Of a stretch of DNA of 64,000 nucleotides, positions 34,356 through 52,380 are shown in pieces (positions within the stretch are counted from its first letter, which is position 1; every line of letters starts with the position of its first letter). The DNA comes from Oligoflexia bacterium (GTDB taxonomy: Bacteria; Bdellovibrionota; UBA1018): NCBI GenBank assembly GCA_963758495.1, contig CAVWVI010000003.1, positions 512,001-576,000 on the forward strand. Reading direction: 5' to 3'. Below the pieces are notes generated by a model, which saw nothing but the letters and a program-made list of their open reading frames with translations, was not told the origin of the DNA and did no database searches. Made by a program: the position numbers and the translations under genes.

Positions 34356-34366
34356 ATTCCGACCTA
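34356..34366 (+). repeat. Putative att core, distal copy (ATTCCGACCTA)
   Basis: Identical to 52370-52380. Confidence 0.6.
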
Positions 34367-34397
34367 TTGCTCTGTTCGCGGACGTCTAGATTGAAAC
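34366..34397 (+). repeat. Inverted degenerate CRISPR repeat
   Basis: ATTGCTCTGTTCGCGGACGTCTAGATTGAAAC matches GTCGCGCCCCTCGCGGGCGCGTGGATTGAAAC at 22/32, in the orientation opposite to the array. Confidence 0.65.
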
Positions 34398-34420
34398 AGT
34401 CCTAACTCTTTACTGAGAAT

Positions 34421-36320
34421 ATTTCAATCCACAGGCCCGCGAAGGGCGCGACCATGCAATTCAATTCGCGAAGCTGATATTAAAAAGTTTCAATCCACGC
34501 GCCCGTGAGGGGCGCGACCAGTCAGAGTAATAGACATCCACTTTTTTCATCGTTTCAATCCACGCGCCCGCGAGGGGCGCGACTTGCTTTAAAACATAGG
34601 CGTCAAGCTGATCAAATGTTTCAATCCACGCGCCCGCGAGGGGCGCGACCCGCTTGCATCAACCGCTTTTTCTCATTTTGAGGTTTCAATCCACGCGCCC
34701 GCGAGGGGCGCGACTCGATATTACTGATGGACATAGGATACATACAATGTTTCAATCCACGCGCCCGCGAGGGGCGCGACGTGTTCCTTCGGATCTTTGG
34801 GCGGGAGAAGCTGACGTTTCAATCCACGCGCCCGCGAGGGGCGCGACAGAGACGATGGCCGCATAGTGAGTTTTGATAATGGTTTCAATCCACGCGCCCG
34901 CGAGGGGCGCGACTCACTAACTCGGACGGGATACATTAACCATAAAGTTTCAATCCACGCGCCCGCGAGGGGCGCGACTTAGCGATGGTGAGCTAGGTGG
35001 ATATATTGAAAAAGTTTCAATCCACGCGCCCGCGAGGGGCGCGACCCGATCAACCCGATCAACTCGCCAATGCTATAAAGTTTCAATCCACGCGCCCGCG
35101 AGGGGCGCGACGTTACGGCGGGAATACTTCAGCTTCGATTGCATGGTTTCAATCCACGCGCCCGCGAGGGGCGCGACGTAGAACAACTGTTACCGGCGGA
35201 TTTTCAAGAGAGTTTCAATCCACGCGCCCGCGAGGGGCGCGACTTTCAGCACTCCTAGACTATTAACTAACTGACTAGTTTCAATCCACGCGCCCGCGAG
35301 GGGCGCGACAGATATAAAACCACGCATGAGCTTCGTAATAAGTGTTTCAATCCACGCGCCCGCGAGGGGCGCGACTCAATCATCTTGGGCAGCTTACGTT
35401 TCGTGAAAGTTTCAATCCACGCGCCCGCGAGGGGCGCGACTTGCCTAGTGACTTAACCCCTCCCCATACTTTAGGTTTCAATCCACGCGCCCGCGAGGGG
35501 CGCGACAGTTGCATAAAAATACGTCATACTGATCCTCGGTGTTTCAATCCACGCGCCCGCGAGGGGCGCGACTTAATTCCTTGGTCTGCCAAAGATTTAA
35601 GCTCAGGTTTCAATCCACGCGCCCGCGAGGGGCGCGACATCGAGTGCAGAACTCATTCAAGCAACCGCTCGAAAGTTTCAATCCACGCGCCCGCGAGGGG
35701 CGCGACCTTCGGGAGGAAATTTACAGGTCAGCGATATCATGTTTCAATCCACGCGCCCGCGAGGGGCGCGACCTCAAGCCGGAAGAGATATAGAAGCAGC
35801 TTGCTAGTTTCAATCCACGCGCCCGCGAGGGGCGCGACGTTTGGGATTTAACTTGCCTAAACTTAGTATCATTGTTTCAATCCACGCGCCCGCGAGGGGC
35901 GCGACCGGTGGAGATGGCGCAGGAGATGTCACCTACGTATGAGTTTCAATCCACGCGCCCGCGAGGGGCGCGACAGGACATCCCGCGTTTTATCTTGTGC
36001 CGCATTCCTGTTTCAATCCACGCGCCCGCGAGGGGCGCGACCGCCGACCATTATCAATGCTTGCGACTTCCGATGACATGTTTCAATCCACGCGCCCCGC
36101 GAGGGGCGCGACCTGAGCGGCGTCAGCGTTATCGTGAGTTAATCATTGCAGTTTCAATCCACGCGCCCCGCGAGGGGCGCGACCCATCGTGATTTACATA
36201 ATGAGCGTTGTAGATCCCAATGTTTCAATCCACGCGCCCGCGAGGGGCGCGACGAAATGAAGTACTGGTGTATGGGCAATTCATGATAGTTTCAATCCAC
36301 GCGCCCGCGAGGGGCGCGAC
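34421..36320 (-). CRISPR. Type I-C CRISPR array, 29 repeats / 28 spacers (33-38 nt)
   Basis: Repeat GTCGCGCCCCTCGCGGGCGCGTGGATTGAAAC on the minus strand. Degenerate terminal repeat at 34421-34452, a 1-nt variant at 34487, and two 33-nt variants at 36080 and 36151. Leader lies toward cas2. Confidence 0.98.
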
Positions 36321-36490
36321 TCCTTAATGCTAAGATCATAAAATAACACAAAATTTCAAAGACCCATCGCTAATCGCGACTTCTATTTCAATAAAAAACA
36401 AAAAAGAACGACCACCGACGTATAAACTATTGAAATCATTAAAGCGCTAATCACTGGCACTAATGATGTCTCATTGAGGTTAGCGAAAAA
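36321..36490 (-). promoter_or_regulatory. CRISPR leader
   Basis: AT-rich 170 bp between the cas2 stop and the first canonical repeat; the degenerate repeat is at the opposite end. Confidence 0.8.
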
Positions 36491-36781
36491 TTATAAAATT
36501 AACGTGTCCTGGAAATCTGTTGCTTTCTTGGTACCGAAATGCTCTACTTTTGACTTCCAATTGCTTCCAAGATAGTAAAAACGCAAACTGTCTTTTTCTA
36601 CGTCATATTCTTTGAGTAACCTTGATTTTAACATTTCCCATTGGGTTGGGTCCACTTCACATTCAAATACAGAACATTGAACCCTCTGACCGAAATCTTG
36701 ACATGCTCTAGCTATTCGCCTCAATCTGCGACTCCCTGCCAAGTTTTTTGTTTCTACATCATAAGTAATTAACATTAGCAT
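36491..36781 (-). CDS. cas2: CRISPR-associated Cas2
   Basis: ITYDV, GQRVQCSVFEC and DSLRFY motifs; 96 aa. Confidence 0.96.
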   Translation of the reverse strand: MLMLITYDVETKNLAGSRRLRRIARACQDFGQRVQCSVFECEVDPTQWEMLKSRLLKEYDVEKDSLRFYYLGSNWKSKVEHFGTKKATDFQDTLIL

Positions 36782-36786
36782 AGGTA

Positions 36787-37818
36787 TTATTTAGATAAAA
36801 ATGCTGGATAATGATTTAAGTCGCCACGAATCGTCCGCGCTAACAGTAGAGCTTGCAAATGAATAACAATACCGATTGGTGCCTTTTCTCCGAGAAAAGG
36901 GTGGATTAATTCTTCCTTTTTTTTCTCTTGCCAAGCAACTAAAATTTCTCTTCTGACTTTATCATCAATTTGTACCGCACCCGTTTCAGAAATTTTAAAT
37001 CCTTCGGAACCAACCTGTTTAAGATTAATCAAACTCAGAACGAGACGATCTCCCAAGACTGCCCGAAATTCCTCCACCAAATCCAGCGCTAAACTAGGTC
37101 GACCTGGGCGGTCTCGATGCAGGAACCCTGCCTGAGGATCTAATCCAACCCCTTCAAGAGCCGAACGACAATCATGAGTAATTAAAGAATATACAAAAGA
37201 AAGCATAGCATTCAGTCTATCTAACGGTGGGCGACGACTACGAGTCTTAAACAAAAAATCTTCCTTTTGGCAGGTAATTAAATTGTTAAAACACGAAAAA
37301 TATTCGTCGGCTGCAGCCCCCTCTATTCCTCGTAATCGATCCAAATCAAATTCCATACCAGACTGCTCCTGCATTCGCCCCATTCGAAGCACAGTGCCCT
37401 TTAAAAGCTCCTTTGAATCACATTCAGAGTAATTTCTTAGATGCCTTTGTAATACCGATCGACTATTAGCAATTTTCGCAGCGACTATTGCTTTTGCAAT
37501 TAAAACAGACCGTTCCGTTAAATCAGATATTCGATATTGTTCCTTACGAAGGAGTATATTTCCAGAAACGGGTCCTTCTACTCGGGCTAAGAATTTACCA
37601 AATTCTGAAAAAAAACTGATCGATACACCACGTTCAGCACAAAAAGCCATCGCATATGGAGAAATCCATATAGGCCCAAATACCATCAACCCCTGAAACA
37701 TGTGAATTGGGAACTGTCCGAGTTTTTTTTCACCGGCCTCTACCACCAAAGTTTCATTTTCCTTACGTACACGTGAATTTTCAGTAGTGATATAGAGAAT
37801 ATTCAACAATTTCTTCAT
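36787..37818 (-). CDS. cas1: Type I-C Cas1
   Basis: MKKLLN.LY, GNILLR, LRGIEG, RRPPLD, GLDP..GFLH and DLVEEFR motifs. Confidence 0.97.
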   Translation of the reverse strand: MKKLLNILYITTENSRVRKENETLVVEAGEKKLGQFPIHMFQGLMVFGPIWISPYAMAFCAERGVSISFFSEFGKFLARVEGPVSGNILLRKEQYRISDLTERSVLIAKAIVAAKIANSRSVLQRHLRNYSECDSKELLKGTVLRMGRMQEQSGMEFDLDRLRGIEGAAADEYFSCFNNLITCQKEDFLFKTRSRRPPLDRLNAMLSFVYSLITHDCRSALEGVGLDPQAGFLHRDRPGRPSLALDLVEEFRAVLGDRLVLSLINLKQVGSEGFKISETGAVQIDDKVRREILVAWQEKKKEELIHPFLGEKAPIGIVIHLQALLLARTIRGDLNHYPAFLSK

Positions 37819-38474
37819 AAATCACCCGGTTTAAAAAGACTTTTAAAATAATGATCTGCTCTATTACTATCAGAATTAGGTTGACATAAATCCATCAAAG
37901 AACAATTGCGACATTTCTTTTCAAAAATTGGCAATGGGGTTCTCCCTGAATGAATCAGTTCATGTACATATTTTGCTACTGTTGCTGTCTCAGTGCGGAT
38001 AGCGTCATTCATCTGTACCCATTCACGACGATTTGGCTGGGCATAATAGAGAGCACCCTTAGAAATGGTAAGACCAAACATTTCTTCAAGACAGATTACT
38101 TGTGCACAAAGTTGAATTCTGTCTATATTAGTGCTTTTTTTTTGACCTCGCTTATATTCGATCGGACATGGTTGCCAAAGCCCCTCTCTTCCAGACAATG
38201 AAACTCCCTGTTGCGATCGAAAAAATTCAACAACATCGGCAATTCCACTTAAACCTAAACTATTTGATCTAATCCTCAAGCTCCGTGCAATAAATAGGTC
38301 TTTCCTTTGTTCAGATTGACCAGTATCTACCTTTTCGTGTAAAAGTTTACCTTGAGTCGTTAGAATATTTTCCGCCCAAACTTGCTCAATGTGAATCAAA
38401 GCACATTGCCTCTCACAAAAGGCGTAATGCTGAAGGGCTGAAATAGGTATAAAATCAACTTCAAAATAATTCAC
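37815..38474 (-). CDS. cas4: Cas4
   Basis: ISALQHYAFCERQ, DVVE, PIEYKRG, QLCAQ and CxxCSLxxxC motifs. Confidence 0.96.
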   Translation of the reverse strand: MNYFEVDFIPISALQHYAFCERQCALIHIEQVWAENILTTQGKLLHEKVDTGQSEQRKDLFIARSLRIRSNSLGLSGIADVVEFFRSQQGVSLSGREGLWQPCPIEYKRGQKKSTNIDRIQLCAQVICLEEMFGLTISKGALYYAQPNRREWVQMNDAIRTETATVAKYVHELIHSGRTPLPIFEKKCRNCSLMDLCQPNSDSNRADHYFKSLFKPGDL

Positions 38475-38506
38475 ATCAGAGATGTTCTAAACAATGGAGT
38501 TAGATG

Positions 38507-39364
38507 TTAATAGCCATTAATCTCTTCAGGAATTAAACCGTCAATCTGATCTATTCTATAAGTACCATCTGTATCCACTTTCAGGCTTCCGTGCACTTTA
38601 GACGAGGCACATTTCCCTTCTTTAGAGGAATGCCTCCACCAAATAACTTTAAGTACTTCCATACTGCCTTCTGGGCGGGCAGAAGAGGCGTCATTTTCAA
38701 ATAACTTCGGAAGGATATTTTTTATGACTTCAGCATCTGTATCGCTGAAACCAGTTCGCACGGCAAGTTGCGGATTCATGCTTCCGTAGGTGAGATAGAC
38801 TCCATAATCAACTCGATGTTTCATACCCATAGTATCAGAAGCACGCTTAGATCCATCACCCTCGCCATTTACACTTTTGGTAATCTGAGTGCTGCTTGTG
38901 CTAATTGGTTCAAGGCTAAATGCGGATTGTATCGTTACGGGGCCACGAATTCCAATAGAGACTCCAGTATCTCCCTCAAAATTGGTTTCTTCTTCACTTT
39001 TATTAATTTTTTTTTCATTTTTTTTGAAGGCGAGCAATTGACCAAATGTTCGAACATCCAACCAATTTTCACATGCTAATTTTGCTGTCTCTATTGAACT
39101 TAATTTTCTTCCAAGTTTTTCTTCTACTCTTTGGCGAATACTTTTACAATCATCAACCTTGCGATCATCAGATTGAACTAAAATAGAATGTCCATTTTCA
39201 AGTAATCGATCACGAATTTTGCGTTTGAGGCACACATCGGTTATCTCACCGAATCCTTCGTAGTTCGTACGAGGACGATTACCATTTAAAGGGTCACCAT
39301 TGGGATTTGCGTTTTTTACTCTAAGAATAATCGCAAAATCAATTTTATTTTGTAACGAACCCAT
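38507..39364 (-). CDS. cas7: Type I-C Cas7/Csd2
   Basis: NANPNGDP, DVCLKRKIRD, DVRTFG and FENDASSARP motifs. Confidence 0.96.
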   Translation of the reverse strand: MGSLQNKIDFAIILRVKNANPNGDPLNGNRPRTNYEGFGEITDVCLKRKIRDRLLENGHSILVQSDDRKVDDCKSIRQRVEEKLGRKLSSIETAKLACENWLDVRTFGQLLAFKKNEKKINKSEEETNFEGDTGVSIGIRGPVTIQSAFSLEPISTSSTQITKSVNGEGDGSKRASDTMGMKHRVDYGVYLTYGSMNPQLAVRTGFSDTDAEVIKNILPKLFENDASSARPEGSMEVLKVIWWRHSSKEGKCASSKVHGSLKVDTDGTYRIDQIDGLIPEEINGY

Positions 39365-39765
39365 TATTGCTCTCCTTTTGTGTTTTCAGTCTGTAAGTCG
39401 GATTTTTTTCTGTTCAGGTCCTGTCGTTGACAGTGATATCCTAGAAGAAATTCACCATTCAAGCGGACATCGCTTTGATACTCATTTAATTGAAAGAGAC
39501 AGGTGACCTCAGTCAGAAGATTTTTCATTACCTGTAAAAAAGGAGCCCTCTTTGCTTTGAGTCTGGCTTGGTAGGGTACCAAGGAAGTTTCTATATTCTT
39601 CCAAGTTGAAAAAGGACGATCAGCAAATCGCTGCATCAACTTGAATGCAGTAGTGTCACGGCTCTCACCTCCTACATGGAGAGCCCTTTCCTCAAGATGA
39701 TCAGCAATAGCAAGTAGTCGCCCATAGAGGTAGTCTCGGCTTGTTCGATCTGGTTCAAGGGCCAT
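39364..39765 (-). CDS. cas11c: Cas11c small subunit translated in-frame within cas8c (133 aa)
   Basis: AAAAGGAGTTATCAA-ATG at 39765, giving MALEPDRTSRDYLYGRLLA; this is the internal-start position established for type I-C. Confidence 0.8.
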   Translation of the reverse strand: MALEPDRTSRDYLYGRLLAIADHLEERALHVGGESRDTTAFKLMQRFADRPFSTWKNIETSLVPYQARLKAKRAPFLQVMKNLLTEVTCLFQLNEYQSDVRLNGEFLLGYHCQRQDLNRKKSDLQTENTKGEQ

Positions 39766-41289
39766 TTGATAACTCCTTTTTTCTTTAGAATTGCGTTCAT
39801 AATAACCTTTGAAAAGTGCGCAAGCAATGCCAAGAGTTTGTTCCCATTCTCTAGGATCTTTTATTCCTACGCGATTACAAGCCCTTCGGAAGACAGACTC
39901 AACCAGATCACGTGGAATTGGGGCTGAATCTAAAATACAAGGCAAAATCCGTTGAATTGTATGTTTTTTTAATTTGTCATCAATACGTTTCGAGAAACAT
40001 GCCTCTGCAATACTACTTGGACTTGGAGCGAAAATTTGCCATAGAATACCTGTTTTCCCTTTTGCTTTCGGATCCAGGAGATGCCAGGAAAAATCAGAGT
40101 GCCAATTTTCGATCCGTCGAAGAAATTCCGAGCTTTGCAATTCCCGGTAATAAACGATAGCTATTCTACCATCACTTGCTGAATCAAGACCTATCACTAC
40201 GATATCCTGAAGCTCTCCTAGTTTCGCCTTATATCCAGCTATCTTCTTATTCAGTTTTAATGCGAAGGTTTGGCCAAAATCAGATTCATTTTTTGAATCG
40301 CTATCCAGTGATTCTCCAAAAAGAATGGAAGTATCAGCAAAGGGATCTGGGATATCTTGGCCACCAGTCGCCCATGAAACAAACACAAGATTCCCGAATC
40401 GCTGGGACTGGCGTTTAATAAGCCACTGAAGCGCATTGTGGATTTTTTGGGAGGCTTCGCTAGACATGCCTACAGCTTGGCTGGCAACACTAAATCTGCC
40501 TCTAAATGTATAGCCCGTACTATCATTAGAAGAGATAAGTTTAGCTCCATCACCACTATGCCGAATTCGACCGGGGTGTTTTGTCGCCAATACTCCCACA
40601 TTCCCAGTTACAAAGCATAAACCCTTCTCGACACACTCAAGCGTTGAGTTATATAGAGTCCAAGCGTCGAACAATGACGGATCTTCCCAGGTAGTAGAGT
40701 TTGGATTTCCTGGTTCCTCTACTCTCCATCTAACAAATGCATCCCCTTGATCCATAGAGGTGGGAAGGACGCTGAAAATTTCATTCTTAAAGACCGCTGG
40801 CTTTTCGCTTTTTGGATTCCACATACAAGCGAGGGTAGCAGGTGAGTCCGTATGAAGAACATTGCAGCCGATTAAGTCAGCTACAACCGTTCCCTTGCTA
40901 ATATATTTAAAAACAGCATTTACTTTGGGGTGATTCGCAACTGGCGAAGACGCCCAGGCTTGTAACTGCTTTGAATATGAGTCGAAGTAAGAATCCTTCC
41001 TTCCACCAAAAGTCTTGTAGTCCTTCGCTATGTATTGAATTTTATCAGAAAGAGGATATGGTGCGTCATTAGCAGTTCGAGTCGCAGACTTTTCTGTGGT
41101 TGGAATAATCGTCTCTATCTTGAGAATGACTTTAGCAGTGTTAAAATTGCCATCTAGATCAATAACAATCTCAATATGAGCATTCTGCAACTTATGGGCG
41201 ACAGGTACTAATATGTTCTTTCCTGTGCTTGTATGAGTAGTATTTGAAACTAAATTGAAGGTTTCATATAATTTTTGGCTCCAACTCAT
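39364..41289 (-). CDS. cas8c: Type I-C Cas8c/Csd1
   Basis: MSW.QKLYETF, AKLISSND, SQKIHNALQWL, YLYGRLLA and FLLGY motifs. Confidence 0.95.
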   Translation of the reverse strand: MSWSQKLYETFNLVSNTTHTSTGKNILVPVAHKLQNAHIEIVIDLDGNFNTAKVILKIETIIPTTEKSATRTANDAPYPLSDKIQYIAKDYKTFGGRKDSYFDSYSKQLQAWASSPVANHPKVNAVFKYISKGTVVADLIGCNVLHTDSPATLACMWNPKSEKPAVFKNEIFSVLPTSMDQGDAFVRWRVEEPGNPNSTTWEDPSLFDAWTLYNSTLECVEKGLCFVTGNVGVLATKHPGRIRHSGDGAKLISSNDSTGYTFRGRFSVASQAVGMSSEASQKIHNALQWLIKRQSQRFGNLVFVSWATGGQDIPDPFADTSILFGESLDSDSKNESDFGQTFALKLNKKIAGYKAKLGELQDIVVIGLDSASDGRIAIVYYRELQSSEFLRRIENWHSDFSWHLLDPKAKGKTGILWQIFAPSPSSIAEACFSKRIDDKLKKHTIQRILPCILDSAPIPRDLVESVFRRACNRVGIKDPREWEQTLGIACALFKGYYERNSKEKRSYQMALEPDRTSRDYLYGRLLAIADHLEERALHVGGESRDTTAFKLMQRFADRPFSTWKNIETSLVPYQARLKAKRAPFLQVMKNLLTEVTCLFQLNEYQSDVRLNGEFLLGYHCQRQDLNRKKSDLQTENTKGEQ

Positions 41290-41996
41290 TCAACCACTCC
41301 GTCGTCAGAGGTGATTGAAAAATTACATCCAATTTCAAACTTTTTCGGCATCATCTCGCGTACCAGGTGACGAACTTTACACACTTCAGGACGATCAAAT
41401 TGAATAATCCCACTCTTCATCACAGGAGAGAAAAGGCGCTTATAGAGCTTATTTTCTCCGTTTTCATCAGGATAATCAAAACCGTGAAACATCAGACCAA
41501 ACCCGAGTTCATCCAAATCATCGTAATCACTCTTGCCGGTACCAAATTCACAAGGCTCCACATAAGCCTGACAGTCTCTTGTCCCCAGGTAAACGTCCAG
41601 GCTTCCACCTTTATCAAGCTTTCTTAAGGCAATCTGGTAGTGCTTACCATCGTTGCGATCTTTCTCCAATTCTGAACGAAAGAGATTCCATTCGAAGTGG
41701 GCTTGAACTTGGTATTCAACATCCGCCAAGAATGTATAAATAGATAACGAATTTCCCCCTCCATAGTTCAAAGGTTTAGTCCCTTTCGTTTGGGTTCGAA
41801 TTTTCTTCATCACGCGAACCTTATCAATGACCCAAATAAAAGTGGGTTTCCAATAGATAGATTTGGCTATGCCTTTTAAAGCTTCATAAGTAGGAATGTG
41901 GTAAGAGCACTTCTCTCCCCCAATTTTTGTCAAAGGATCTGTAAAAAGAGCATGAGGACCCCAAACTTTGAATTCAATACAATTTTTCGGTTTCAT
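41286..41996 (-). CDS. cas5c: Type I-C Cas5c/Cas5d
   Basis: ALFTDP, SYHIPTYEAL, IYWKP and YLGTRDC motifs. Confidence 0.96.
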   Translation of the reverse strand: MKPKNCIEFKVWGPHALFTDPLTKIGGEKCSYHIPTYEALKGIAKSIYWKPTFIWVIDKVRVMKKIRTQTKGTKPLNYGGGNSLSIYTFLADVEYQVQAHFEWNLFRSELEKDRNDGKHYQIALRKLDKGGSLDVYLGTRDCQAYVEPCEFGTGKSDYDDLDELGFGLMFHGFDYPDENGENKLYKRLFSPVMKSGIIQFDRPEVCKVRHLVREMMPKKFEIGCNFSITSDDGVVE

Positions 41997-42016
41997 AGGG
42001 TATTCCAAAGTCTACT

Positions 42017-45101: not shown

Positions 45102-45197
45102 ACAATCCAACACATGCTCATGATCAGCCTGCCGATAAGGCTGGAACTTAGGGCATAGGTAACAAAAAAAGGGGGATCCAAATGACAGAGTGATTTT
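45102..45197 (-). pseudogene. 96-bp relic of the ginB-like recombinase gene
   Basis: Direct repeat of 49490-49586 with about 4 substitutions and a 1-nt deletion. Confidence 0.85.
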
Positions 45198-45276
45198 ATC
45201 TTTTACGCATTCACCTGGAGCTTTAAAAGTAAAAAAGGGCTCTCAAATCTTTACGATGATAAAATAACAAATAGCC

Positions 45277-45306
45277 AAAAAAAAGGAGCCTTAAAAGGCT
45301 CCTTTT
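45277..45306 (-). terminator. Rho-independent terminator (possibly bidirectional)
   Basis: A8-GGAGCC-TTAAAA-GGCTCC-T4. Confidence 0.8.
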
Positions 45307-45727
45307 AATAAATAATACTTTACAAATCTTTATGATTTTCAATTATTGCATGTCAAAATGGTAGTTTATATAAAACAAACAAAAACTATTCTTAAGTATC
45401 GATAACTATTTGAAATAATATGTAATTTTAGTACATCTGTAAAATCTTTGTCTAAAAAATGGTAAGAAACTATGCCTCCTAAGAAGAATAGCCACTTTCA
45501 GTTGAATGATTTTCTCATTCAGTTTGTAAAGTTTGTGATTAACACTTTTAAACGCGCCGGATTGGTCCCTAACTTCACTCAGTTTGGCAACTTAGGAGCG
45601 ACTGACCGTGTTACCGTTGAGAAATCCCGAAAATATACAGCCAGATGTCTCTGTCGTTGCAAAGCCAGGTCGACAATACAATATCCTACCCCAAGCGAGA
45701 GGTCTGCCACCTCTCACACTCTCTGGC

Positions 45728-45758
45728 CCCATGTGCTGTTAAGCACATGGGCTTTTTT
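45728..45758 (+). terminator. Rho-independent terminator on the plus strand
   Basis: CCCATGTGCT-GTTA-AGCACATGGG-C-TTTTTT. Confidence 0.7.
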
Positions 45759-45765
45759 AAAAGCC

Positions 45766-46443
45766 CTATCCCTTCATAGCATCTAAATTGTCTTCAATGC
45801 TCTTGTCTGGCCTTGTCCGTAAGTAGAGATTTCCAGATCTTGAATGCGCAATCACTGCGTCCACTCTTCCTTGACGAGTCAGTGCAATACCCTGAATTTT
45901 TGAAATCCATCCCATCGTTTCAATCTGATAGGAAACGATCGTTTTCTTTTTGTTTCTTTGAACCCCAATAATTTTAAGTTTATCCGTGCATTCTTCGATT
46001 ACGCCCTTTTGCTGGCCCTCCATTTGTTCAATGGCCTTCCAGAGCATTTCAAATTCATTAGGACTGAAATCTTTGATTTTTTTGTCTCCCTTGACTCCAA
46101 TCTTCCCACGTAAAAATCGCACGTAATTCTCTGGATCATTACCATCTTCTTTTGGAGCATACACTTTTATCAATGCTTTAAGATCTTTCGTTCCATGCTC
46201 ATTTTTCAAGCAATCAAGATGTGCCTGATGGCCCGTTTTATAATCTGGGAATACCGCAAATCCCCCTGCTTTCCCAATAGCACCATTTCTTTTACTGACT
46301 TTCCCTACAACAAGATTGCCAGGATTATTATTTCTCCAGGTCCAATTGCCTTTTGAAAAACAAAACTTCCTGCCATCTTCAGATTCGTAAATTACAGAGT
46401 GCCTAGGTCCAGGACCTGCTTTAACAAATTTGGGTTCACTCAT
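45766..46443 (-). CDS. Lysozyme-like (RNNNPGN) domain plus C-terminal DUF3892-like domain
   Basis: WRNNNPGNL...GFAVFP...YAP..DGNDPENY; C-terminal YLRTRPD....NLD. Confidence 0.7.
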   Translation of the reverse strand: MSEPKFVKAGPGPRHSVIYESEDGRKFCFSKGNWTWRNNNPGNLVVGKVSKRNGAIGKAGGFAVFPDYKTGHQAHLDCLKNEHGTKDLKALIKVYAPKEDGNDPENYVRFLRGKIGVKGDKKIKDFSPNEFEMLWKAIEQMEGQQKGVIEECTDKLKIIGVQRNKKKTIVSYQIETMGWISKIQGIALTRQGRVDAVIAHSRSGNLYLRTRPDKSIEDNLDAMKG

Positions 46444-46883
46444 GATTTAATTACTTCCAGTTGATCAACTGACATTAAAACTCTAGAATGATGATGCCCT
46501 GACCATCGATGAAAAAAATACCCTTTCAAGTGGACTTTAATTTTTTTCTTCATTGTTTCTCTAATTTTTTTTTCAAGTTTATGGTTTTCATAATCCCAAG
46601 TTAACTGGATGATCCTAACATTTCTTTCGGTTTCAGATTCTGCCGAAGGAGCATCATTTTTGGTCTCTTCAACATCAACTGGCTCTAAAAATCTTAGGTA
46701 CCAACCTTTTTCAATCCTATCTCCTTTGGCAATACTTTCATATTCTGGAGGACCAGGAAACGTTTGTTGCTCGATTATTCCCGTTACCTCAACAATTGCT
46801 GGCTCATAATGCATGACTGGATTTGCGCCAAAACTCAGATTGATATCCAATAACAAGCTTATAAATAATAATATAATTTTCAT
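46440..46883 (-). CDS. Secreted DUF4431-like protein (putative immunity protein)
   Basis: Signal peptide; TFPGPPEYES...QL...GHHHSRVLM; ATGA-coupled to the downstream gene. Confidence 0.7.
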   Translation of the reverse strand: MKIILLFISLLLDINLSFGANPVMHYEPAIVEVTGIIEQQTFPGPPEYESIAKGDRIEKGWYLRFLEPVDVEETKNDAPSAESETERNVRIIQLTWDYENHKLEKKIRETMKKKIKVHLKGYFFHRWSGHHHSRVLMSVDQLEVIKS

Positions 46884-46895
46884 ACAAGAACTGCC

Positions 46896-47372
46896 CTAAA
46901 TTCGGCCGCTGAATGGAATTTCTTTGTCAAACACCGTCAAAACTTTGTTTATTTCCTTATCTGAGGGTAATTCGACACCCTTTGGAGCAGCAGCATCTAC
47001 CTGATGAACCTGTATTCCTTTTTGCCGAATGTGAAACGCAATTCGTTGCCATCGTTGTCTCCAAAGGCATTCTCGACGTTTGTATTCAGCCACCTCAAGC
47101 TTGAGCCTCTCAACCTCACCCGCGAGTTCCTGATTTTCTTGAGTAGCTTCTTGTTGGCTTTTAATGGCCCCCCTGCCCAGAGACTTCTTAGCATAATCGT
47201 AAGCTGCTTTAATTTCTGACTTAGCTTGAAGTGACTGTCGACTGAACCCGAACCTCTCTCCAAGGGCTTCCCAGGTTAGTTTCGATCCAAATTGTCCGGC
47301 TGCCCAACGGTCGAGATCAGAAACAATGGTAGAAACATCAGATTTGGTCATTTTGCGAAATCGTTTAGTCAT
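46896..47372 (-). CDS. Small coiled-coil accessory protein (GinD/TnpC-like)
   Basis: KLTWEAL...FSRQSL...IK.AY HTH-like region plus coiled coil; overlaps the third recombinase gene. Confidence 0.75.
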   Translation of the reverse strand: MTKRFRKMTKSDVSTIVSDLDRWAAGQFGSKLTWEALGERFGFSRQSLQAKSEIKAAYDYAKKSLGRGAIKSQQEATQENQELAGEVERLKLEVAEYKRRECLWRQRWQRIAFHIRQKGIQVHQVDAAAPKGVELPSDKEINKVLTVFDKEIPFSGRI

Positions 47373-49368
47373 GGATAGAGTCCTCCAGATACTGATAAGG
47401 GCTGAAGTCTGAGATCCCGTTATCGATCAACTGTTGGGAAAGTACTTTGAACTTCTTATCGTTGTGAGCAATCCAATCGACGCTCTTTTTCGGCTTGTCG
47501 GTTTTTGCCTGTTTCTCTGCGGTTTCTCTTGCAATCAAAGTCATCGCGTATTGGCGCTTGAGTTCTTCAATACGGCCATCATCGTTCTTGACCCACACAT
47601 AGTCTTTACAATCCGCAGAGCACTGAAGATGCCTCTCACAAGGAGTTTGGGCAAAATTATGCACGCACATTCCAGTGCCAACATCATGGACGGCATTAAT
47701 CCGTGCCTTTAAAAAAGCATCCTGCACCTGAGCTGGGACATATTTCAGTTGTTCCGCAACTTGCCCTTGAACGAGCCCTTTCTTAATATCTTCTCGCAAC
47801 ATCAAAGCCCGCTTTTCTCGGCTCGTATGCTGATAGGCTTTAGTGTCTCTTGGATTTTTCCGGCCGAACCACTCAGTTTGCAGAAGGTCAGTCAACCCGC
47901 CTTCATCGAGTAAGGTATTGAGGGTATGACGAAAATGATGAGTTGTAAAATCAGCCTCCATAGAATACTCCGTATACTCTTTGGCCAAAGTCTCAAAAGA
48001 TCTCAAAAAAGTAGTCATCATGGAATGCGTACAAAAGGTAGCAATCCAGCGTTTTTCACGTCCAGTTGTTGAGAAACCAACAAATTTCAAAAGAAGAAGA
48101 TCTTTAAGAAAATAGTGGCGACCGCACTGATCGACGTGAACAGGCGCAATGAATTGGGGCGAAAAATCCTTTTCACAGTAGGCCGTTATCCCCTCCTTTG
48201 TAAGAAAATACTGTGACCTCTTCACACCTGAAACCGATGATAAGACCTCTTTGCCAAGATAACCATTTTGGCTAAACCATCCAGCTGTACTAATCGCCTT
48301 TAAGGGGAGACCTACCGCTTCAAGCTGGTGCCTATTAAATTTTTGGTCATCAGAGACGTCTGCGAGAAAAGTCAAATCAGGGCCTTTTACTTTTTCCATG
48401 ATAGCCGCTGTCTGCCTTGCAGGTGCACAAATCTGATCTAGCTCTGTGATGACATCACGTACAATTCCCACAACCTTTGTCGGCAAGAATAGACGTCGCC
48501 GAGGAGTAAATGTATCCCCAGAGGAACGCTTCCGAGGGAAATACTCAATATAAAATCTACCTTCGTTATCACATTCAACCTTTTGATAAGGAAGTAAAGC
48601 TATCTCACTAAAACGCCGCCCCAAACAGGCCAGGAGAACCAACACTAATACGTAGAAACGATACTTATGATCATGAGGTACTCGTTGGTAAAGTTGTCCT
48701 AAAATCCGAAATACGGCAGGCTCCACCAATTTCGATGACTTTGTTTCTGATGCTTCTGGATCGTCAAGGCGTTTATGAGCCAAGCCGCCTACGTTTTCGG
48801 GACGCTTCATTCCTGTAAATCTGTATCCTAAGTGAGTCTTGCAGAGACGATTTGCGTCGCAGTACCCCGCAAATTCATGAACTGCTTTGTGTAAATTGTA
48901 GCCGACTCCATCGCTATAGTGTGATGTAATCAGTCGACACGCGTAATCAAGATGCTCAGGCGTGAGTTGAAAAAAACCCTGACTCTGCTCAGAGCCAGCG
49001 AAAGCCACGTACCCTATTGCTGTAATAAAAAATCTCTGGCTGGTTGCAGTTTGATTTCCACGATGAAAACGAAGAACAAAGAGTGCCTTCGCCACTTCAA
49101 GCCATACCCCCGTTAGCTCAGCCCCTCCCAATTTTGGTGCGAATTGAAAATTGAGCGTCGTCGCTTTGCAGTTTTTGCCCGTAATCTTGACTAAGCGCCC
49201 CCTTGCAATCGTCCATAAGGAAGATTCCCAATTCACATCTTCAAATCCTTCCAGTTTAAGCATCTTTGCTCTTTCACACAGGGAGCGAAAATTTTCCGAA
49301 CAGTCTTTCTCTAAACGGCTTATAAATTGGACGACGTTAGTTCTTCCACTAGTAATTGGCCTATCCAT
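47365..49368 (-). CDS. Tyrosine recombinase 3 (GinC-like)
   Basis: GRRFSE, HHFRH, WFGR and AYQH; Cys-rich tail (GMCVH, PCERHLQC). Start at ATG 49368 with GGAGG RBS. Confidence 0.85.
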   Translation of the reverse strand: MDRPITSGRTNVVQFISRLEKDCSENFRSLCERAKMLKLEGFEDVNWESSLWTIARGRLVKITGKNCKATTLNFQFAPKLGGAELTGVWLEVAKALFVLRFHRGNQTATSQRFFITAIGYVAFAGSEQSQGFFQLTPEHLDYACRLITSHYSDGVGYNLHKAVHEFAGYCDANRLCKTHLGYRFTGMKRPENVGGLAHKRLDDPEASETKSSKLVEPAVFRILGQLYQRVPHDHKYRFYVLVLVLLACLGRRFSEIALLPYQKVECDNEGRFYIEYFPRKRSSGDTFTPRRRLFLPTKVVGIVRDVITELDQICAPARQTAAIMEKVKGPDLTFLADVSDDQKFNRHQLEAVGLPLKAISTAGWFSQNGYLGKEVLSSVSGVKRSQYFLTKEGITAYCEKDFSPQFIAPVHVDQCGRHYFLKDLLLLKFVGFSTTGREKRWIATFCTHSMMTTFLRSFETLAKEYTEYSMEADFTTHHFRHTLNTLLDEGGLTDLLQTEWFGRKNPRDTKAYQHTSREKRALMLREDIKKGLVQGQVAEQLKYVPAQVQDAFLKARINAVHDVGTGMCVHNFAQTPCERHLQCSADCKDYVWVKNDDGRIEELKRQYAMTLIARETAEKQAKTDKPKKSVDWIAHNDKKFKVLSQQLIDNGISDFSPYQYLEDSIHD

Positions 49369-50965
49369 GAACAACCCCCTCCTTACATTGTTCAATGACT
49401 TGAGCGACTGCTAGAATCACTTCATCCAATTGAATCCCCAAACGTCCCTGCTCGTATTTTTCTAACCTTTCCTTTCGGCCCATCAGGAGACAATCCAAAA
49501 CATGCTCATGATCAGCCTGCCGATACGGCTGGAACTTAGGGCATAGGTAACAAGAAAAAGGGGGATCTAAATGACAGAGTGATTTTTCACCGCAGATCCC
49601 GATATCAGTTTGATCTAAGGGATTTACTTCGCTCACAAACGCCAAGTGCTTGTCGTCTCGCTCTCCGTTGATGGCTTCGTGCTGGCTTTCAATTACTATC
49701 CCTCGGAATAATTGGAGGTATTTTGAAAAACCTTTCGCCATTGCTTTGTCCAAATGCTCAACAATGGTTCCGGCAAGTTCAAAATAGACTTGTACGTGCT
49801 GTGTGTCAGTATGGTCTAAAATCCGAGCCAACTCAGCTCTACTGATACCTTCCGCTGCAAGACCTGTCGCGAGAGTGTATCTCAAGCGACGAGTGCAGAT
49901 TTGGAGCAGCTCGCCTGTTAATGGTGAAATAATTTTATGACGGCGAACGAACCCAACTATTAGACGGGTAATATCAAAACTGGTCATATTGAAAATATCA
50001 CCAAAAGAACCAGCAGCAAGTGCAGAACGGTTTTTCTCAATATTGATAAAGATTGGTTTTTCTACTTCAATTGTATTCCCCTCATGTATGGCAACGGTAG
50101 AAATACTTTTGTTTGCTTCAATAAGTTCAAGCACATAATCTGCAAATTGGGGCTCTAAATATTCATCTAACAAGTCATCCCGAGGGTTGAGGCCACGCTT
50201 CTTAATTCGTGGCATGCGGATCACATAACAAGGCGGTTGCCCATCGAGAGCTAAATTCATCAAATCTGAAGCCTTAAGATAGGTCAAATTCGCTGGATTG
50301 CGACCCAATGCTATTGAAAGAGCAAGCGCCGCCTTTTGTTGCAAATGGGAAAGTTTGGAACTTTTATCCTGCCGAAGAGCGTCTAGAAGTAGAGGGAGTT
50401 CCAATGACCGATGAAGTGGGCCCTTATCTTTATCTTCTAAACGAACAGCCTCCCCTTTTGGATTTCCAGGAATAACCATTCCTTCAAGTTCCATTGCATA
50501 TGCTGGACAAAATCCTAGTTCGGGATAATTCTCTGCACACCAAAGATACCACTGTATTGGACGATATAAGGCCCATAAGCGGTGCTTTGAACGAGCTTGC
50601 GAAATGGAGTCCTCTACCAATCTTATAAGACTATTTTTTAGGACTTCGGTATCGAGAGAGTTCGATAGTTGATATCTTCCTTGAGCCTTTAGAAATTCAA
50701 ACCAAATCCCTCTATAGGCAATGAACCCAGCATGGGTTGAAGTAAATTGAATTCTATCTTGCACATACCTTTTTGCGCTCCACCGAAGGAAGGAGTTTTG
50801 AATATCAGAAAATACGACTGAGCCATTTGTCTCCGTGGGGCATGGCAGGTGCCATGTATCGGAGACACTATCAACTACGAGACCTTCCCTCGTTATGATC
50901 GTAGTAGGCAATTCAGCCCAGCCATTTCCGGTAATGAGTTGATTTAAGGTTTGATGAGCACTCAT
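49361..50965 (-). CDS. Tyrosine recombinase 2 (GinB-like)
   Basis: PRIK, RRLRYT, LDHTD and VY; Cys tail IGIC...CH...SCYLCPKFQP. Confidence 0.85.
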   Translation of the reverse strand: MSAHQTLNQLITGNGWAELPTTIITREGLVVDSVSDTWHLPCPTETNGSVVFSDIQNSFLRWSAKRYVQDRIQFTSTHAGFIAYRGIWFEFLKAQGRYQLSNSLDTEVLKNSLIRLVEDSISQARSKHRLWALYRPIQWYLWCAENYPELGFCPAYAMELEGMVIPGNPKGEAVRLEDKDKGPLHRSLELPLLLDALRQDKSSKLSHLQQKAALALSIALGRNPANLTYLKASDLMNLALDGQPPCYVIRMPRIKKRGLNPRDDLLDEYLEPQFADYVLELIEANKSISTVAIHEGNTIEVEKPIFINIEKNRSALAAGSFGDIFNMTSFDITRLIVGFVRRHKIISPLTGELLQICTRRLRYTLATGLAAEGISRAELARILDHTDTQHVQVYFELAGTIVEHLDKAMAKGFSKYLQLFRGIVIESQHEAINGERDDKHLAFVSEVNPLDQTDIGICGEKSLCHLDPPFSCYLCPKFQPYRQADHEHVLDCLLMGRKERLEKYEQGRLGIQLDEVILAVAQVIEQCKEGVVHG

Positions 50966-52152
50966 CCTTCGCTCCCCGACAGGAGTAATTTCTTTTGAAA
51001 GCTTTTCAGAGCATATTTAGCCTGCTCTTCAATCTCTTGAGCAATGTAGACTGACTGTGACTCTAAACTACTGTCACCCCTTAGAATTGCCAGAGCTTGT
51101 CTTCTGCGATCTTCGTTCAAACCAGATTCGCGAAGTGTTCGCTCTATTCTGCTTGAAAATGTATGTCGGAGAGCTTTTGCAGACAGATGCGGAGGCAATT
51201 GATCTGCAAACCGCCTTCTCAATCCTTCATACAGTTTATTTAAAGCTGATTGAGAGAGGGGGTCTCCCTCATCACTCAATATTAGATATTCGGAATCCTG
51301 TTTAGACTTGGCCTCAAGCTCGTCTCTCCATGTCATGATATATTCATTTAGTCTGCGAGCAAACTGAGGATCCTCGATAGGTAATATGCGGCCATTACGT
51401 TTTATTTTCGGACGGGGGCGGCGAGTATCGTTAGGATCCGGAGGTCTTCGTTTGACATGTATTCCAGACACTCCGCCCAACTCAATGTCTTCTACCTTTA
51501 GGCTTAAAAGCTCACCTGGGCGGAGGCCATAATAGAGCATGATCATAGTCGAGATATAATTTCTAAATTTTACAGCTGCGTTTCGTCCAACCGACTTCGG
51601 ATTGTTTGGATCAAGGCATTCAATCAAGTCTTTTACTTCCTGCTCTTTTAAGCCCTTAGGTTTGCGCGTATTGACTGGAGGAAGGCTTGTATAGGTAGTA
51701 TCTAGCCATTTCAAGTTTCTTAACTGTTGGTCTCTTATGCGCTCGTAGCGCATGTCTCCGAGAGCCAAGCTACTCAAATATAAATCGAAGCACCAACTAA
51801 AAAAGTTTCTTATAGTTGCTACCCGTAAATTAAAACTATGGGGAGAGACTGCAAGCTGAGTTACTCTTCTATCCATGCACTGATCACGTCTTAGAGCCTC
51901 TACTAAGCTTCCTCGTAGTTCGGCCTCTGAAAAAAACTTTCCTGACTCTATTCTTTCCCACAGATCAATCGAATGTTTATCTAGCCACCGATAAAGCACC
52001 ATCAATTCCCTAAGATTTCGTACTAAGGTCGAGGTACTCATTGATCTTCTTCCCAAGATAAACTCATTGGGAGTAGGTATCGGCAACCCGTTTATATCAA
52101 GGAGTATCGGAATTTGATCCCCGGAAGAATGAGAGATGATGTCAATACGCAC
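50962..52152 (-). CDS. Tyrosine recombinase 1 (GinA-like)
   Basis: GLRPGELLSL, ALRHTF, RGD and VY; GTG start; ATGA-coupled to the next gene. Confidence 0.88.
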   Translation of the reverse strand: MRIDIISHSSGDQIPILLDINGLPIPTPNEFILGRRSMSTSTLVRNLRELMVLYRWLDKHSIDLWERIESGKFFSEAELRGSLVEALRRDQCMDRRVTQLAVSPHSFNLRVATIRNFFSWCFDLYLSSLALGDMRYERIRDQQLRNLKWLDTTYTSLPPVNTRKPKGLKEQEVKDLIECLDPNNPKSVGRNAAVKFRNYISTMIMLYYGLRPGELLSLKVEDIELGGVSGIHVKRRPPDPNDTRRPRPKIKRNGRILPIEDPQFARRLNEYIMTWRDELEAKSKQDSEYLILSDEGDPLSQSALNKLYEGLRRRFADQLPPHLSAKALRHTFSSRIERTLRESGLNEDRRRQALAILRGDSSLESQSVYIAQEIEEQAKYALKSFQKKLLLSGSEG

Positions 52153-52257
52153 GTTGTAAGTCCTTTACAAAATGAATTAACTCTCAATTACTAAATTTAC
52201 AATTTAATTTTTATCCGTATTAGTAGATTACTTATTATTCTCTTAGCTTGAAAAATG

Positions 52258-52293
52258 AAAAAAAGCCTTTTGAATCTTTACAATCCAAAAGGC
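52258..52293 (-). terminator. Terminator downstream of ssb, inside the island end
   Basis: GCCTTTTG...CAAAAGGC stem followed by T7 on the minus strand. Confidence 0.7.
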
Positions 52294-52369
52294 CTTCTTA
52301 ATAACTTATTTTCTTATTTTTCAGTAGGTTAGCAAAAACAGCGTTGTCCTTGCTTTACAAAACCACTTT

Positions 52370-52380
52370 ATTCCGACCTA
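52370..52380 (+). repeat. Putative att core, ssb-proximal copy (ATTCCGACCTA)
   Basis: Overlaps the ssb TAG; identical to 34356-34366. Confidence 0.6.

Follow-up and report, generated by a model that had tools for sequence, protein, structure and literature searches.

Introduction

The 3′ end of ssb is the commonest published target of GInts, genomic islands that bear three integrases. Six of the eleven GInts analysed across taxa sit in an ssb homologue, with the gene end overlapped by attL (Bardaji et al. 2017, PMC5385486), and the yjcB–ssb interval of Escherichia coli, hotspot 39, is named as a GInt site in excerpts of Hochhauser et al. 2023 (PMC10121019). GinC is reported to lack the first catalytic arginine (Bardaji et al. 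2017, PMC5385486) and, in excerpts of Idola et al. 2023 (PMC10214605), the RHRY motif; the same excerpts report no BLAST-level similarity between the proteins of strand-biased circularizing elements (SEs) and those of GInts. Excerpts of McDonald et al. 2019 (PMC6360697) place a type I-F CRISPR-Cas system on VPI-6, a type I-E system on GI-24 and, in V. natriegens, a type II-B system at tRNA-Met, in an island of 30 kb that has “three integrases”.

Here we analyse a 64,000-nucleotide stretch of DNA (the window) in which a gin element at the 3′ end of ssb is, by its sequence, a GInt. The original prediction knew of no described GInt with such a cargo or site, but for the site the six published cases and hotspot 39 show otherwise; GInts at ssb are already in the literature and the window island is a further member. 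What lies at this ssb end is probably a tandem array composed of an intact small GInt and a decayed one, with a CRISPR-Cas system in the cargo position of the latter. From ssb outwards, the order would be the intact GInt (unit 1), the relic of the second GInt, an acquired type I-C CRISPR-Cas system, two RAP-domain genes and the ancestral neighbour of ssb.

Results

The target gene and its ancestral neighbourhood

The integration target, ssb (52378..52902, minus strand; Pfam SSB, E = 1.5e-43), has an intact frame of 174 aa with a C-terminal end like that of its relatives, so the SSB product is unaltered by the insertion. All 14 fetched relatives contain ssb homologues, and in all 14 the gene is directly adjoined, at a distance of 2–130 bp, by a homologue of the gene found here at 30273..31007 (minus strand), which synteny identifies as the ancestral downstream neighbour. 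We take its product to be a family-2 glycosyltransferase from the N-terminal IPTYNE motif; a family scan of the product returned no match. In the window 21.4 kb separates the two genes, compared with direct adjacency in the relatives, which supports reading the entire stretch between them as inserted DNA. Two paralogous RAP/FAST-like repeat-protein genes (31106..34276, minus strand) are absent at this position in the relatives and occupy a different locus in G112, a metagenome-assembled genome of the same family.

The gin operon

The first recombinase gene begins 225 bp past the ssb stop codon, as had been noted. Three overlapping, co-directional recombinase-fold ORFs (50962-52152, 49361-50965 and 47365-49395) all have PF00589 matches. 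Counting a small fourth ORF on the same strand, the products measure 396, 534, 676 and 158 aa, and the ends of the ORFs overlap. GinA (50962..52152, minus strand; 396 aa) is a tyrosine recombinase (PF00589, E = 2.4e-13), 72% identical to its G112 homologue and 55–56% to those of Pseudoalteromonas, Klebsiella and E. coli. GinB (49361..50965, minus strand; 534 aa) is a recombinase-fold protein with a Cys/His-rich C-terminal part, which matches NF041502 with E = 1.7e-76, yet below the family cut-off, and PF00589 weakly over its catalytic end. It shares 58–59% identity with its Klebsiella and E. coli counterparts and keeps R222, R362, H385 and Y394, as read by eye, the Pfam match covering residues 355–397.

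GinC (47365..49395, minus strand) has a weak PF00589 match and measures 676 aa from a TTG start, or 667 aa from the ATG at 49368, its likely start. It has 256 homologues at E ≤ 1e-5, and an alignment of 28 sequences shows no variation at R260 and R261 (GRRFSE), H486, R489, W509 and Y521, the assignment of the first arginine being our own reading of the GRRFSE motif; hhalign of GinC against GinA gave no usable alignment. A coiled-coil gene had been noted along with the recombinases. The fourth ORF (ginD, 46896..47372, minus strand; 158 aa) encodes a protein that is mostly helical in its AlphaFold model (mean pLDDT only 68), with one 45-residue helix at residues 73–117, and the protein had no match in Pfam, NCBIfam or PADLOC; it is 83% identical to its G112 homologue and 63% to those of Pseudoalteromonas and Klebsiella.

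Overall, GinA–D are 55–63% identical to the proteins of the Klebsiella and Pseudoalteromonas elements, whose DNA is 89% identical to the E. coli ssb–yjcB element at the hotspot 39 GInt site. The GInt assignment by sequence goes through this E. coli element. The closest gin relatives also lie at ssb. G112 carries ssb-ginA-ginB′ on one contig and ginB′-ginC-ginD on another (67–83% aa identity), and there ginD precedes a different gene. In Pseudoalteromonas and Klebsiella indica the order is uvrA-ssb-ginABCD with a TPR-GreAB-C-PIN cargo behind it, and in E. coli 2/0 uvrA-ssb-ginABCD is followed by a type I restriction system and yjcB. Homology among the window, G112, E. coli and Pseudoalteromonas ends after ginD, and the four cargos differ. 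In the window the cargo (45766..46883, minus strand) encodes two proteins, one of 147 aa with an N-terminus that to the eye looks like a signal peptide, and a DUF3892 protein of 225 aa (Pfam); the same gene pair is found elsewhere in the genome, on contig C1, at ~62% identity. The anatomy of the operon and its homologues, together with the core at the ssb end described below, bear out the predicted GInt-type element targeting ssb.

The ends of a 7-kb island

Comparison of the occupied E. coli site with the empty site of K-12 yields a 7-bp repeat, CCGTTCT, preceded by the right end ...GTGAACTA. The attL core of the window, CCATTTT (52380..52386, minus strand), occupies the position of this repeat and consists of the last two ssb codons and the T of the stop. 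The left-end region (52153..52379, minus strand) contains three TGTAAAG motifs, one TTGTAAA and a hairpin. When the elements of the window, G112, E. coli and Pseudoalteromonas are aligned, each of the four has its first TGTAA motif 18 nt past the stop codon.

The right-end block (45355..45550, minus strand), located by homology and with a matrix, terminates in the 20-mer TTTATATAAACTACCATTTT at 45355–45374, the last seven bases of which (45355–45361) form the attR core. The block (~190 bp) is 78% identical to the G112 contig C271, and the terminal 20-mer is common to the window, E. coli and Pseudoalteromonas. GInts are described as having a short 3′ end of poor conservation in which some AT-rich stretches are conserved, and the window block agrees with this. 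A right-end matrix built from four other ends, two of them from one genome and with the window's own site left out, ranks 45355 first on both strands of the 3.66-Mb genome (21.4 vs 18.3 bits for the next site). A 15-nt subterminal inverted repeat pairs the right end with the left end.

The repeat co-varies with the ssb of its host. The right end reads ...ATAAACTA + CCATTTT at 45355 in the window, where ssb ends in CCATTTT, and ...CAGACTA + CCGTTTT in G112, where ssb ends in CCGTTTT; the E. coli repeat is CCGTTCT, and the Pseudoalteromonas right end, ...GTGAACTG + CCGTTCT, lies 12.3 kb from its ssb end. An older, second right end, ...AAACTA + CCATTCT, survives in G112, where it abuts the glycosyltransferase start. 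Unit 1, at about 45355–52386 (7.0 kb), is most likely an intact GInt that ends upstream of cas3. By analogy with tested GInts, for which circular excision and integration are described as requiring all four genes, we infer that it is active: its four Gin proteins would recombine the two ends into a circle that re-inserts at an ssb end, leaving SSB unchanged.

A relic and a CRISPR-Cas block behind the right end

Directly behind the attR core is a stretch resembling a second GInt left end (45225..45354, minus strand), which is common to G112. It carries an ATAAAG...TTTGTAAAG motif, and a 33-nt block 98 nt from the attR core matches, collinearly and at 76% identity, a block 96 nt from the attL core. 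It is followed by a 97-bp ginB fragment (45102..45197, minus strand; codons 460–492; blastn and tblastn). The fragment is 96% identical to the resident ginB, whereas the left-end relic is 64–76% like the resident left end, so the two need not derive from one old element. A further piece (44859..44970) is ~79% identical to the G112 DNA that adjoins the right-end block, but here it is inverted and outside the island. A search of ORFs and Pfam matches found no other mobility gene in 34367-45354. These resemblances most likely mark the relic of a second GInt, devoid of recombinase genes, behind the right end of unit 1.

The type I-C operon cas3, cas5, cas8c, cas7, cas4, cas1, cas2 (36491..44500, minus strand; Pfam and NCBIfam) has all its frames open. 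Cas8c scores 376.9 bits with TIGR01863 (cut-off 218.65), and Cas5d, Cas7, Cas4, Cas1 and Cas2 are above their Pfam cut-offs. The adjoining leader (36321–36490) and array (34421–36320), together 34421..36490 on the minus strand, contain 29 repeats (25 exact, counted by script, and 4 variant, by eye) and 28 unique spacers; none of the spacers matched the own genome, phages or plasmids. Cas8c was found in one of 127 genomes of the class, the source genome itself (G000), which supports the view that this complete system is foreign and horizontally acquired. The nearest Cas3 relatives found, at two metagenome loci, are 55–56% identical.

The predicted complete type I-C system is therefore present with its array, but it lies outside the intact GInt, which does not enclose the cas locus as had been proposed: the right end at 45355–45374 is ~850 bp upstream of the cas3 start (44500). 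The sole element that retains mobility genes thus does not include the CRISPR-Cas block, which we read as stranded there.

Arrival of the cas block

In our judgement there is about an even chance that the older, decayed tandem GInt brought the cas block here as its cargo. The block starts right past the left-end relic and the ginB fragment, where the cargo of a GInt begins; serial insertion at the ssb end is documented by the two right ends of G112; and 34367-45354 harbours no other mobility gene. Since no right-end motif was found beyond the cas block, this reading has to do without a far border. The same observation fits a somewhat less probable course of events, in which the block came without any GInt, for example by recombination after transformation or on an element that is now unrecognisable, and simply occupies a variable region behind ssb, the adjoining GInt fragments being unrelated debris. 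G112 has the left-end relic too and no cas nucleotide match, so the relic may predate the block; the different locus of the RAP genes in G112 points to other processes that move genes in and out here; and the 2.3–2.7 kb upstream of the two metagenome Cas3 relatives contained no match to gin or ssb.

It is improbable that the intact 7-kb GInt and the gin-less relic form a composite, in which the resident Gin proteins would recombine the ssb-side end with an outer site at 34356–34366 and move the complete, adaptation-capable type I-C CRISPR-Cas system as a passenger by accretion-mobilisation. The eight bases next to the core at attL are identical to those of this outer site. If the composite were true, it would be the first demonstrated case of a CRISPR-Cas system carried by a GInt, and the host would belong to Bdellovibrionota. 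Integrative elements that accrete beside decayed neighbours devoid of a recombinase are known from the CIMEs next to ICESt1 and ICESt3 of Streptococcus thermophilus. There, as proposed for the window, a new element at the gene-proximal att site pushes a decayed one outwards and inner att sites are hybrid, although those systems are ICEs and the window contains GInts. The outer att site of the relic is unrecognisable here, which leaves co-mobilisation unsupported.

The 11-mer and the proposed 18-kb island

The 11-mer ATTCCGACCTA, on which the original prediction based its island borders, occurs exactly twice, at 34356..34366 (plus strand, exact match) and at 52370–52380. As stated there, it overlaps the ssb stop and recurs 54 bp past the last CRISPR repeat; the repeat nearest the distal copy is the last, degenerate one. 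In relatives, the glycosyltransferase gene behind ssb has conserved I-P-T-Y codons at its start, and the 11-mer is their reverse complement. At attL its first base is the last one of the core, and it runs up to the beginning of the conserved left-arm motif, a placement more orderly than pure chance suggests.

A single 18-kb GInt (34356–52380), with the 11-mer as target duplication, the CRISPR-Cas system as its own cargo and the 45355 site as an absorbed fossil, is likewise unlikely. It would account for the exact 11-mer at both places and for its placement at attL, and it agrees with published GInt repeats of 10–17 nt and with published cargo reaching at least 70 kb. As a pre-specified word, two copies of the 11-mer were reached in none of 100 shuffles. 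The word was, however, chosen after sight; when the search space is counted, same-strand matches of at least 11 nt that link the 81 bp surrounding the ssb stop to the next 21 kb downstream arise in 179 of 500 first-order Markov controls, so the match is not significant post hoc. The distal copy lacks the right-end 20-mer and every part of the 190-bp right-end block, and no right-end motif was found beside it or elsewhere beyond the array. The 20-nt stretch around the attL copy resembles the inverted glycosyltransferase start in 17 of 20 bases, a score reached by 3 of 1000 shuffles; the distal region resembles the neighbour gene no better than shuffles do (606 of 1000). The last ssb codons lie within the published ssb repeats but outside the 11-mer. 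Comparison of the occupied and empty E. coli sites shows the bases past the core at attL to be island-derived, and by analogy those past the T of the stop in the window would come from the island and not from the target. The inner site at 45355 co-varies with ssb in two genomes. The repeat of the family is the 7-bp CCATTTT, and the claim that the 11-mer marks the border of an island of ~18 kb is not supported.

Discussion

The comparison defines precise, cross-phylum ends for ssb-targeting GInts: a repeat of 7 bp that covers the last ssb codons and, ahead of it, a conserved 20-mer. This pattern is common to E. coli, Pseudoalteromonas and two Bdellovibrionota-like genomes, and it can be used to delimit islands for which there is no empty site. 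A short exact repeat beside a recombinase operon is by itself not an island border. Repeated insertion at the ssb end yields arrays in which live and dead islands stand side by side, and the window shows how an entire CRISPR-Cas system can come to rest behind a GInt, a point relevant to the accumulation of defence systems at integration hotspots.

It is very improbable that the gin element is an SE or a recombinase-in-trio (RIT) element: the SE layout likewise has three recombinase-fold genes and a small gene, and the gin element has a weak match to NCBIfam GmtY, but that match scores 29.5 bits against a cut-off of 340, the middle protein keeps the R...R-H-Y pattern that the SE middle protein lacks, RIT elements do not have the fourth gene conserved here, and the homologues are E. 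coli ssb–yjcB elements, at a site that the literature assigns to GInts. SEs (intA-tfp-intB-srap; excerpts of Idola et al. 2023, PMC10214605) share with the window a recombination module of four genes, the fourth of which encodes a small helical protein, and the different bases next to the core at the two window ends (AGGTCGGA vs GACATGCA) recall the footprints of SEs. They differ in the position of the degenerate member in the gene order, and the target in the window is ssb.

The islands in excerpts of McDonald et al. 2019 (PMC6360697) resemble the window in that a complete acquired CRISPR-Cas system lies in an integration hotspot beside recombinase genes. In the window the system is of type I-C, the hotspot is ssb and the cas block is beyond the borders of the intact island; the Vibrio integrase trio is not classed as a GInt in those excerpts.

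The closest likeness is to the GInts at ssb, in which ginABCD is also proximal to ssb, cargo follows directly after ginD, the far end is short and conserved, a short repeat covers the last ssb codons and the SSB product is unchanged; the Gin proteins are like those of the E. coli ssb–yjcB element (55–63% identity). The window repeat, 7 bp and exact, is short beside the imperfect published repeats of 10–17 nt, and the island, at 7.0 kb, is under the 8.3–75.8 kb of published GInts (Bardaji et al. 2017, PMC5385486, Table S3). GinC retains the invariant GRRFSE arginine, in contrast to the missing first arginine of that report. The host is apparently a member of Bdellovibrionota, whereas PMC5385486 and the excerpts of PMC10121019 name Proteobacteria, Verrucomicrobia, Bacteroidetes and Firmicutes. 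Finally, unlike the published GInts at ssb, the window GInt is joined in a tandem arrangement by a relic that lacks gin genes and by a CRISPR-Cas block.

Organization of the ssb region

The ssb gene (52378–52902, minus strand) is followed, after a gap of 225 bp, by four overlapping gin open reading frames (ORFs) of 396, 534, 676 and 158 amino acids, which run on the minus strand from 52152 down to 46896, and then by the ORFs of a 147-residue protein and of a 225-residue DUF3892 protein on the same strand. A stretch of about 1.27 kb without a convincing gene separates the DUF3892 ORF from a complete type I-C operon (cas3, cas5, cas8c, cas7, cas4, cas1 and cas2; 44500 down to 36491, minus strand), after which come a 170-bp leader and the CRISPR array (34421–36320), both also on the minus strand. 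The array contains 29 repeats and 28 unique spacers, 25 exact repeats being located by script and four variants (34421, 34487, 36080 and 36151) being read from the printed sequence. Two of the variants, both close to the leader (36080–36112 and 36151–36183), are 33 rather than 32 nt long through the insertion of one base, and four changes distinguish the terminal repeat at 34421. An Rfam search over 30000–54000 gave no match at E ≤ 0.1.

The original prediction placed the gin genes and the CRISPR-Cas system in an 18-kb Genomic Island with three Integrases (GInt) bounded by an 11-mer at 34356–34366 and 52370–52380. The gaps that it gave, 225 bp from ssb to the gin operon and 54 bp from the last CRISPR repeat to the 11-mer, are both correct, and the word occurs in exactly two copies in the window, at 34356 and 52370, so that the observation itself holds.

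The ssb neighborhoods of 14 relatives, 13 from the same family and one from another, were compared by tblastn. In 14 of 14, the gene next after ssb, at a distance of 2–130 bp, is a homologue of 30273–31007, which we take from its IPTYNE motif to encode a family-2 glycosyltransferase; in the source genome the two genes are 21.4 kb apart. The inserted segment is longer than originally estimated: besides the gin genes and the cas block it contains two paralogous RAP/FAST-like genes (31106–34276). Homologues of the RAP genes were found in four of the 127 genomes of the class, the source genome included, and in G112, a metagenome-assembled genome (MAG) of the same family, they lie at an unrelated locus; they were treated as a separate variable element. 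The two RAP/FAST-kinase-like genes (31106–32515 and 32633–34276) are tandem paralogues made of 114-bp (38-residue) tandem repeats and are the only copies in the genome. This pair of domains is typical of eukaryotic organellar RNA-binding proteins, and further eukaryote-like domains are found on the other side of ssb (53537–56128), in the genes for an Rsm22-like methyltransferase and a 464-residue RCC1-repeat protein.

A GInt at its textbook site

GInts are defined by a terminal ginABCD operon, cargo that starts from the ginD stop codon, a short far end and imperfect flanking repeats of 10–17 nt (Bardaji et al. 2017, PMC5385486). The element in the window is a GInt, inserted at the textbook location, ssb. 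The statement that no GInt had been described at this site is wrong, because an ssb homologue is the site of 6 of 11 GInts analyzed across taxa, with attL overlapping the gene end (Bardaji et al. 2017, PMC5385486), and because in E. coli hotspot 39 (yjcB-ssb), occupied in 38 of 1292 genomes, harbors GInts that carry defence systems (Hochhauser et al. 2023, PMC10121019).

A search of a large protein collection returned 256 GinC homologues at E ≤ 1e-5, mostly at 55–61% identity, some of them from E. coli, Vibrio cholerae, P. aeruginosa, Neisseria and an Oligoflexus MAG. Among species-representative genomes GinC is rare: 2 of 127 from the organism's class have it, as does 1 of 401 sampled from the class to which the Pseudoalteromonas genome belongs, and this one is the query's own source. 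Scanning of the genome collection yielded three loci, in G112 (82%) and in Pseudoalteromonas sp. T1lg65 and Klebsiella indica (58%). The last two show the order uvrA-ssb-ginABCD followed by a TPR-GreAB-C-PIN pair, so that, in the stretches compared, the same GInt with this cargo stands at ssb in two orders of Gammaproteobacteria. Of 5426 complete E. coli genomes, 56 contain DNA 89% identical to Klebsiella ginB'-ginC-ginD; the island of strain 2/0 is inserted between ssb and yjcB, with a type I restriction system as cargo.

Ends of the intact unit

The island ends were defined by aligning the empty site of E. coli K-12 with the occupied site of strain 2/0. The flanking repeat is CCGTTCT, which corresponds to the last two ssb codons and the T of the stop codon. 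On the ssb side all bases after this T are island DNA, the stop codon changing from TGA to TAG, and on the far side ...TTTATGTGAACTA directly precedes the repeat. The E. coli matches H4 and H12 represent the same element as match H2 and provide no independent end. The Pseudoalteromonas island ends in ...CTTATGTGAACTG followed by CCGTTCT, just before a host EAL-domain gene, 12.3 kb from the ssb end, this being the length of that GInt between its CCGTTCT repeats.

In the window, read in ssb orientation, TTTATATAAACTA followed by CCATTTT is found at 45355–45374 (core, 45355–45361), within the non-coding DNA that precedes cas3, and the ssb end is also CCATTTT (52380–52386). A segment of G112 contig C271 is 78% identical to window 45244–45550; at the right end there, ...CAGACTA precedes CCGTTTT, and CCGTTTT is also the ssb end of G112. 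The repeat of each genome matches its own ssb end and therefore tracks the synonymous ssb codons of each host, a co-variation in two genera that suggests insertion, or re-insertion, after the lineages split. A second, older right end in G112, ...AAACTA followed by CCATTCT, abuts the glycosyltransferase start codon; it is located on contig C96, behind opposite-strand genes of 291 and 458 residues. Given these two right ends, there are two or more GInt-derived units, nested or in tandem, at the ssb gene of G112, which shows serial insertion at this site within the same family.

The four other right ends, but not that of the window, were used to derive a position weight matrix, which was applied to both strands at all positions of the 3.66-Mb genome. 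Its best score, 21.4 bits, falls at 45355, the next being 18.3. Both GInt ends of the window share a subterminal inverted repeat of 15 nt that includes TGTAAAG, and the first TGTAA motif lies 18 nt past the stop codon in the left ends of all four elements (4/4). From these end signals we conclude that the intact GInt probably spans about 45355–52386 (7.0 kb) and that its cargo consists only of the 147-residue and DUF3892 genes. The headline of the original prediction, that the CRISPR-Cas system is cargo of a GInt bounded by the 11-mer, is hence not supported, since the GInt ends at about 45355, upstream of cas3.

In the Pseudomonas GInts that have been tested, all four gin genes are needed for joining of the ends into a circle and for insertion into the target (PMC5385486). 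The unit at 45355–52386 is a complete GInt. By analogy, its four Gin proteins would join its ends as a circle and insert it at the ssb end, both steps presumably requiring all four genes.

The CRISPR-Cas block and a GInt relic behind the right end

Cas8c was found in only one of the 127 genomes of the class, that of the source organism itself, and the cas block is therefore foreign. No right-end motif was found beyond the array, even at three mismatches or by matrix score. With neither mobility genes nor a recognizable far end, the block appears to be stranded.

Directly past the inner core (45355–45361) lie about 110–130 bp, present past the G112 core too, which have the layout of a GInt left end. 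Besides a hairpin they hold an ATAAAG...TTTGTAAAG motif, and a block of 33 nt, located 98 nt from the inner core, is 76% identical to the one 96 nt from attL of the resident island. Further on, a 97-bp ginB fragment (45102–45197, codons 460–492), 96% identical to the resident ginB, stands isolated in the non-coding DNA before cas3; its similarity to the resident gene far exceeds that between the neighboring left-end relic and the left end of the resident island. Another fragment, of about 112 bp, adjoins the right-end block in G112 and is inverted in the window. Further gin remnants were not detected behind the right end, and some 600 bp farther along the cas operon starts. We put the chance that the cas block arrived as cargo of a decayed second GInt at about one half; the alternative is that it arrived independently of such an element. 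A metagenome scan with Cas3 returned two distant loci (55–56% identity), with no match to gin or ssb in the 2.3–2.7 kb upstream of either, and the protein atlas contained generic Cas8c clusters only. The array had no match in the phage and plasmid collections, and the longest spacer match in the organism's own genome outside the array was 18 nt.

The 11-mer

Treated as a pre-specified word, the 11-mer is unexpected, two copies being reached in 0 of 100 shuffles. It was, however, picked after inspection, and in 179 of 500 controls the 81 bp surrounding the ssb stop shared a match of at least 11 nt with the 21 kb downstream. The 11-mer does not cover the last ssb codons, which are covered by the published ssb repeats (Table S3, PMC5385486) and by the four ends mapped here, and by analogy with E. 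coli its ssb-side copy would be island DNA. Its first base is exactly the last one of the core, and it extends up to the beginning of the conserved left-arm motif. Its reverse complement, moreover, matches the initial I-P-T-Y codons of the ancestral neighbor gene, exactly in one relative and at 10 of 11 positions in the source genome. Because of this placement at the core edge and this likeness to the neighbor gene, we do not call it pure chance.

The 20-nt attL stretch 52370–52389, formed by the ssb end and the next eight bases, agrees in 17 of 20 bases with 30970–30989 taken in inverted orientation, a score reached by 3 of 1000 shuffles; the matched target encodes I-P-T-Y-N-E-I at the start of the glycosyltransferase gene. 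A few host bases can be carried along at the attachment site, as reported for GInts (PMC5385486) and for strand-biased circularizing integrative elements (Idola et al. 2023, PMC10214605). Such carriage could have left the attL likeness to the glycosyltransferase start as a footprint, and the matched pair 52370–52389/30970–30989 might represent either this or a pseudo-attachment site. There is no 11-mer-like site in direct orientation near 31008–31105. A glycosyltransferase start remnant at 34343–34366, with ATGCG 13 nt upstream of the word, was rejected, as the score of the distal region against the gene start was reached by 606 of 1000 shuffles.

Cargo, Gin proteins and relation to known GInts

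A paralogous copy of the cargo pair, about 62% identical, is present at another locus of the genome, which fits the remark that GInt cargo comes mostly from related bacteria (Bardaji et al. 2017, PMC5385486). It recurs, as a pair or as fragments, at 57–74% identity on contigs C1 (about 405792–406858) and C3 (about 65046–65701 and 911255–911556), and is a small multi-copy accessory module. PADLOC returned nothing better than E = 0.005 for the cargo and flanking ORFs.

Sequence searches of the PDB with GinA, GinB and GinC gave no usable match, and hhalign comparisons of GinC and of GinB with GinA, made with shallow alignments, had probabilities below 1%. Each of the three large Gin proteins has the arginine, histidine/tryptophan and tyrosine positions, the C-terminal motifs being identified by eye and covered by Pfam matches, and the GinC residues R260, R261, H486, R489, W509 and Y521 do not vary among 28 homologues. 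GinD is helical, with one 45-residue helix in a low-confidence model. Behind the catalytic domain there are invariant Cys/His clusters, in GinC at 577–596 (C577, H579, C586, H589, C592 and C596) and in GinB at about 458–492 (both encoded within 47365–50965), which look like a putative zinc-binding module; the parts of the GInt literature considered here make no mention of one.

No description of a GInt with CRISPR-Cas cargo was found in searches of open-access papers on GInts and CRISPR, among which only Hochhauser et al. 2023 (PMC10121019) contains both Tn6571 and CRISPR. The type II-B system of V. natriegens lies on an island with "three integrases" at tRNA-Met that was not classed as a GInt (McDonald et al. 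2019, PMC6360697). The element at ssb is real and belongs to an already known kind, the GInt, with one apparent difference in its recombinases: GinC has been published as being without the first arginine (Bardaji et al. 2017, PMC5385486), whereas the GinC of the window seems to keep it, a putative assignment from motif reading.
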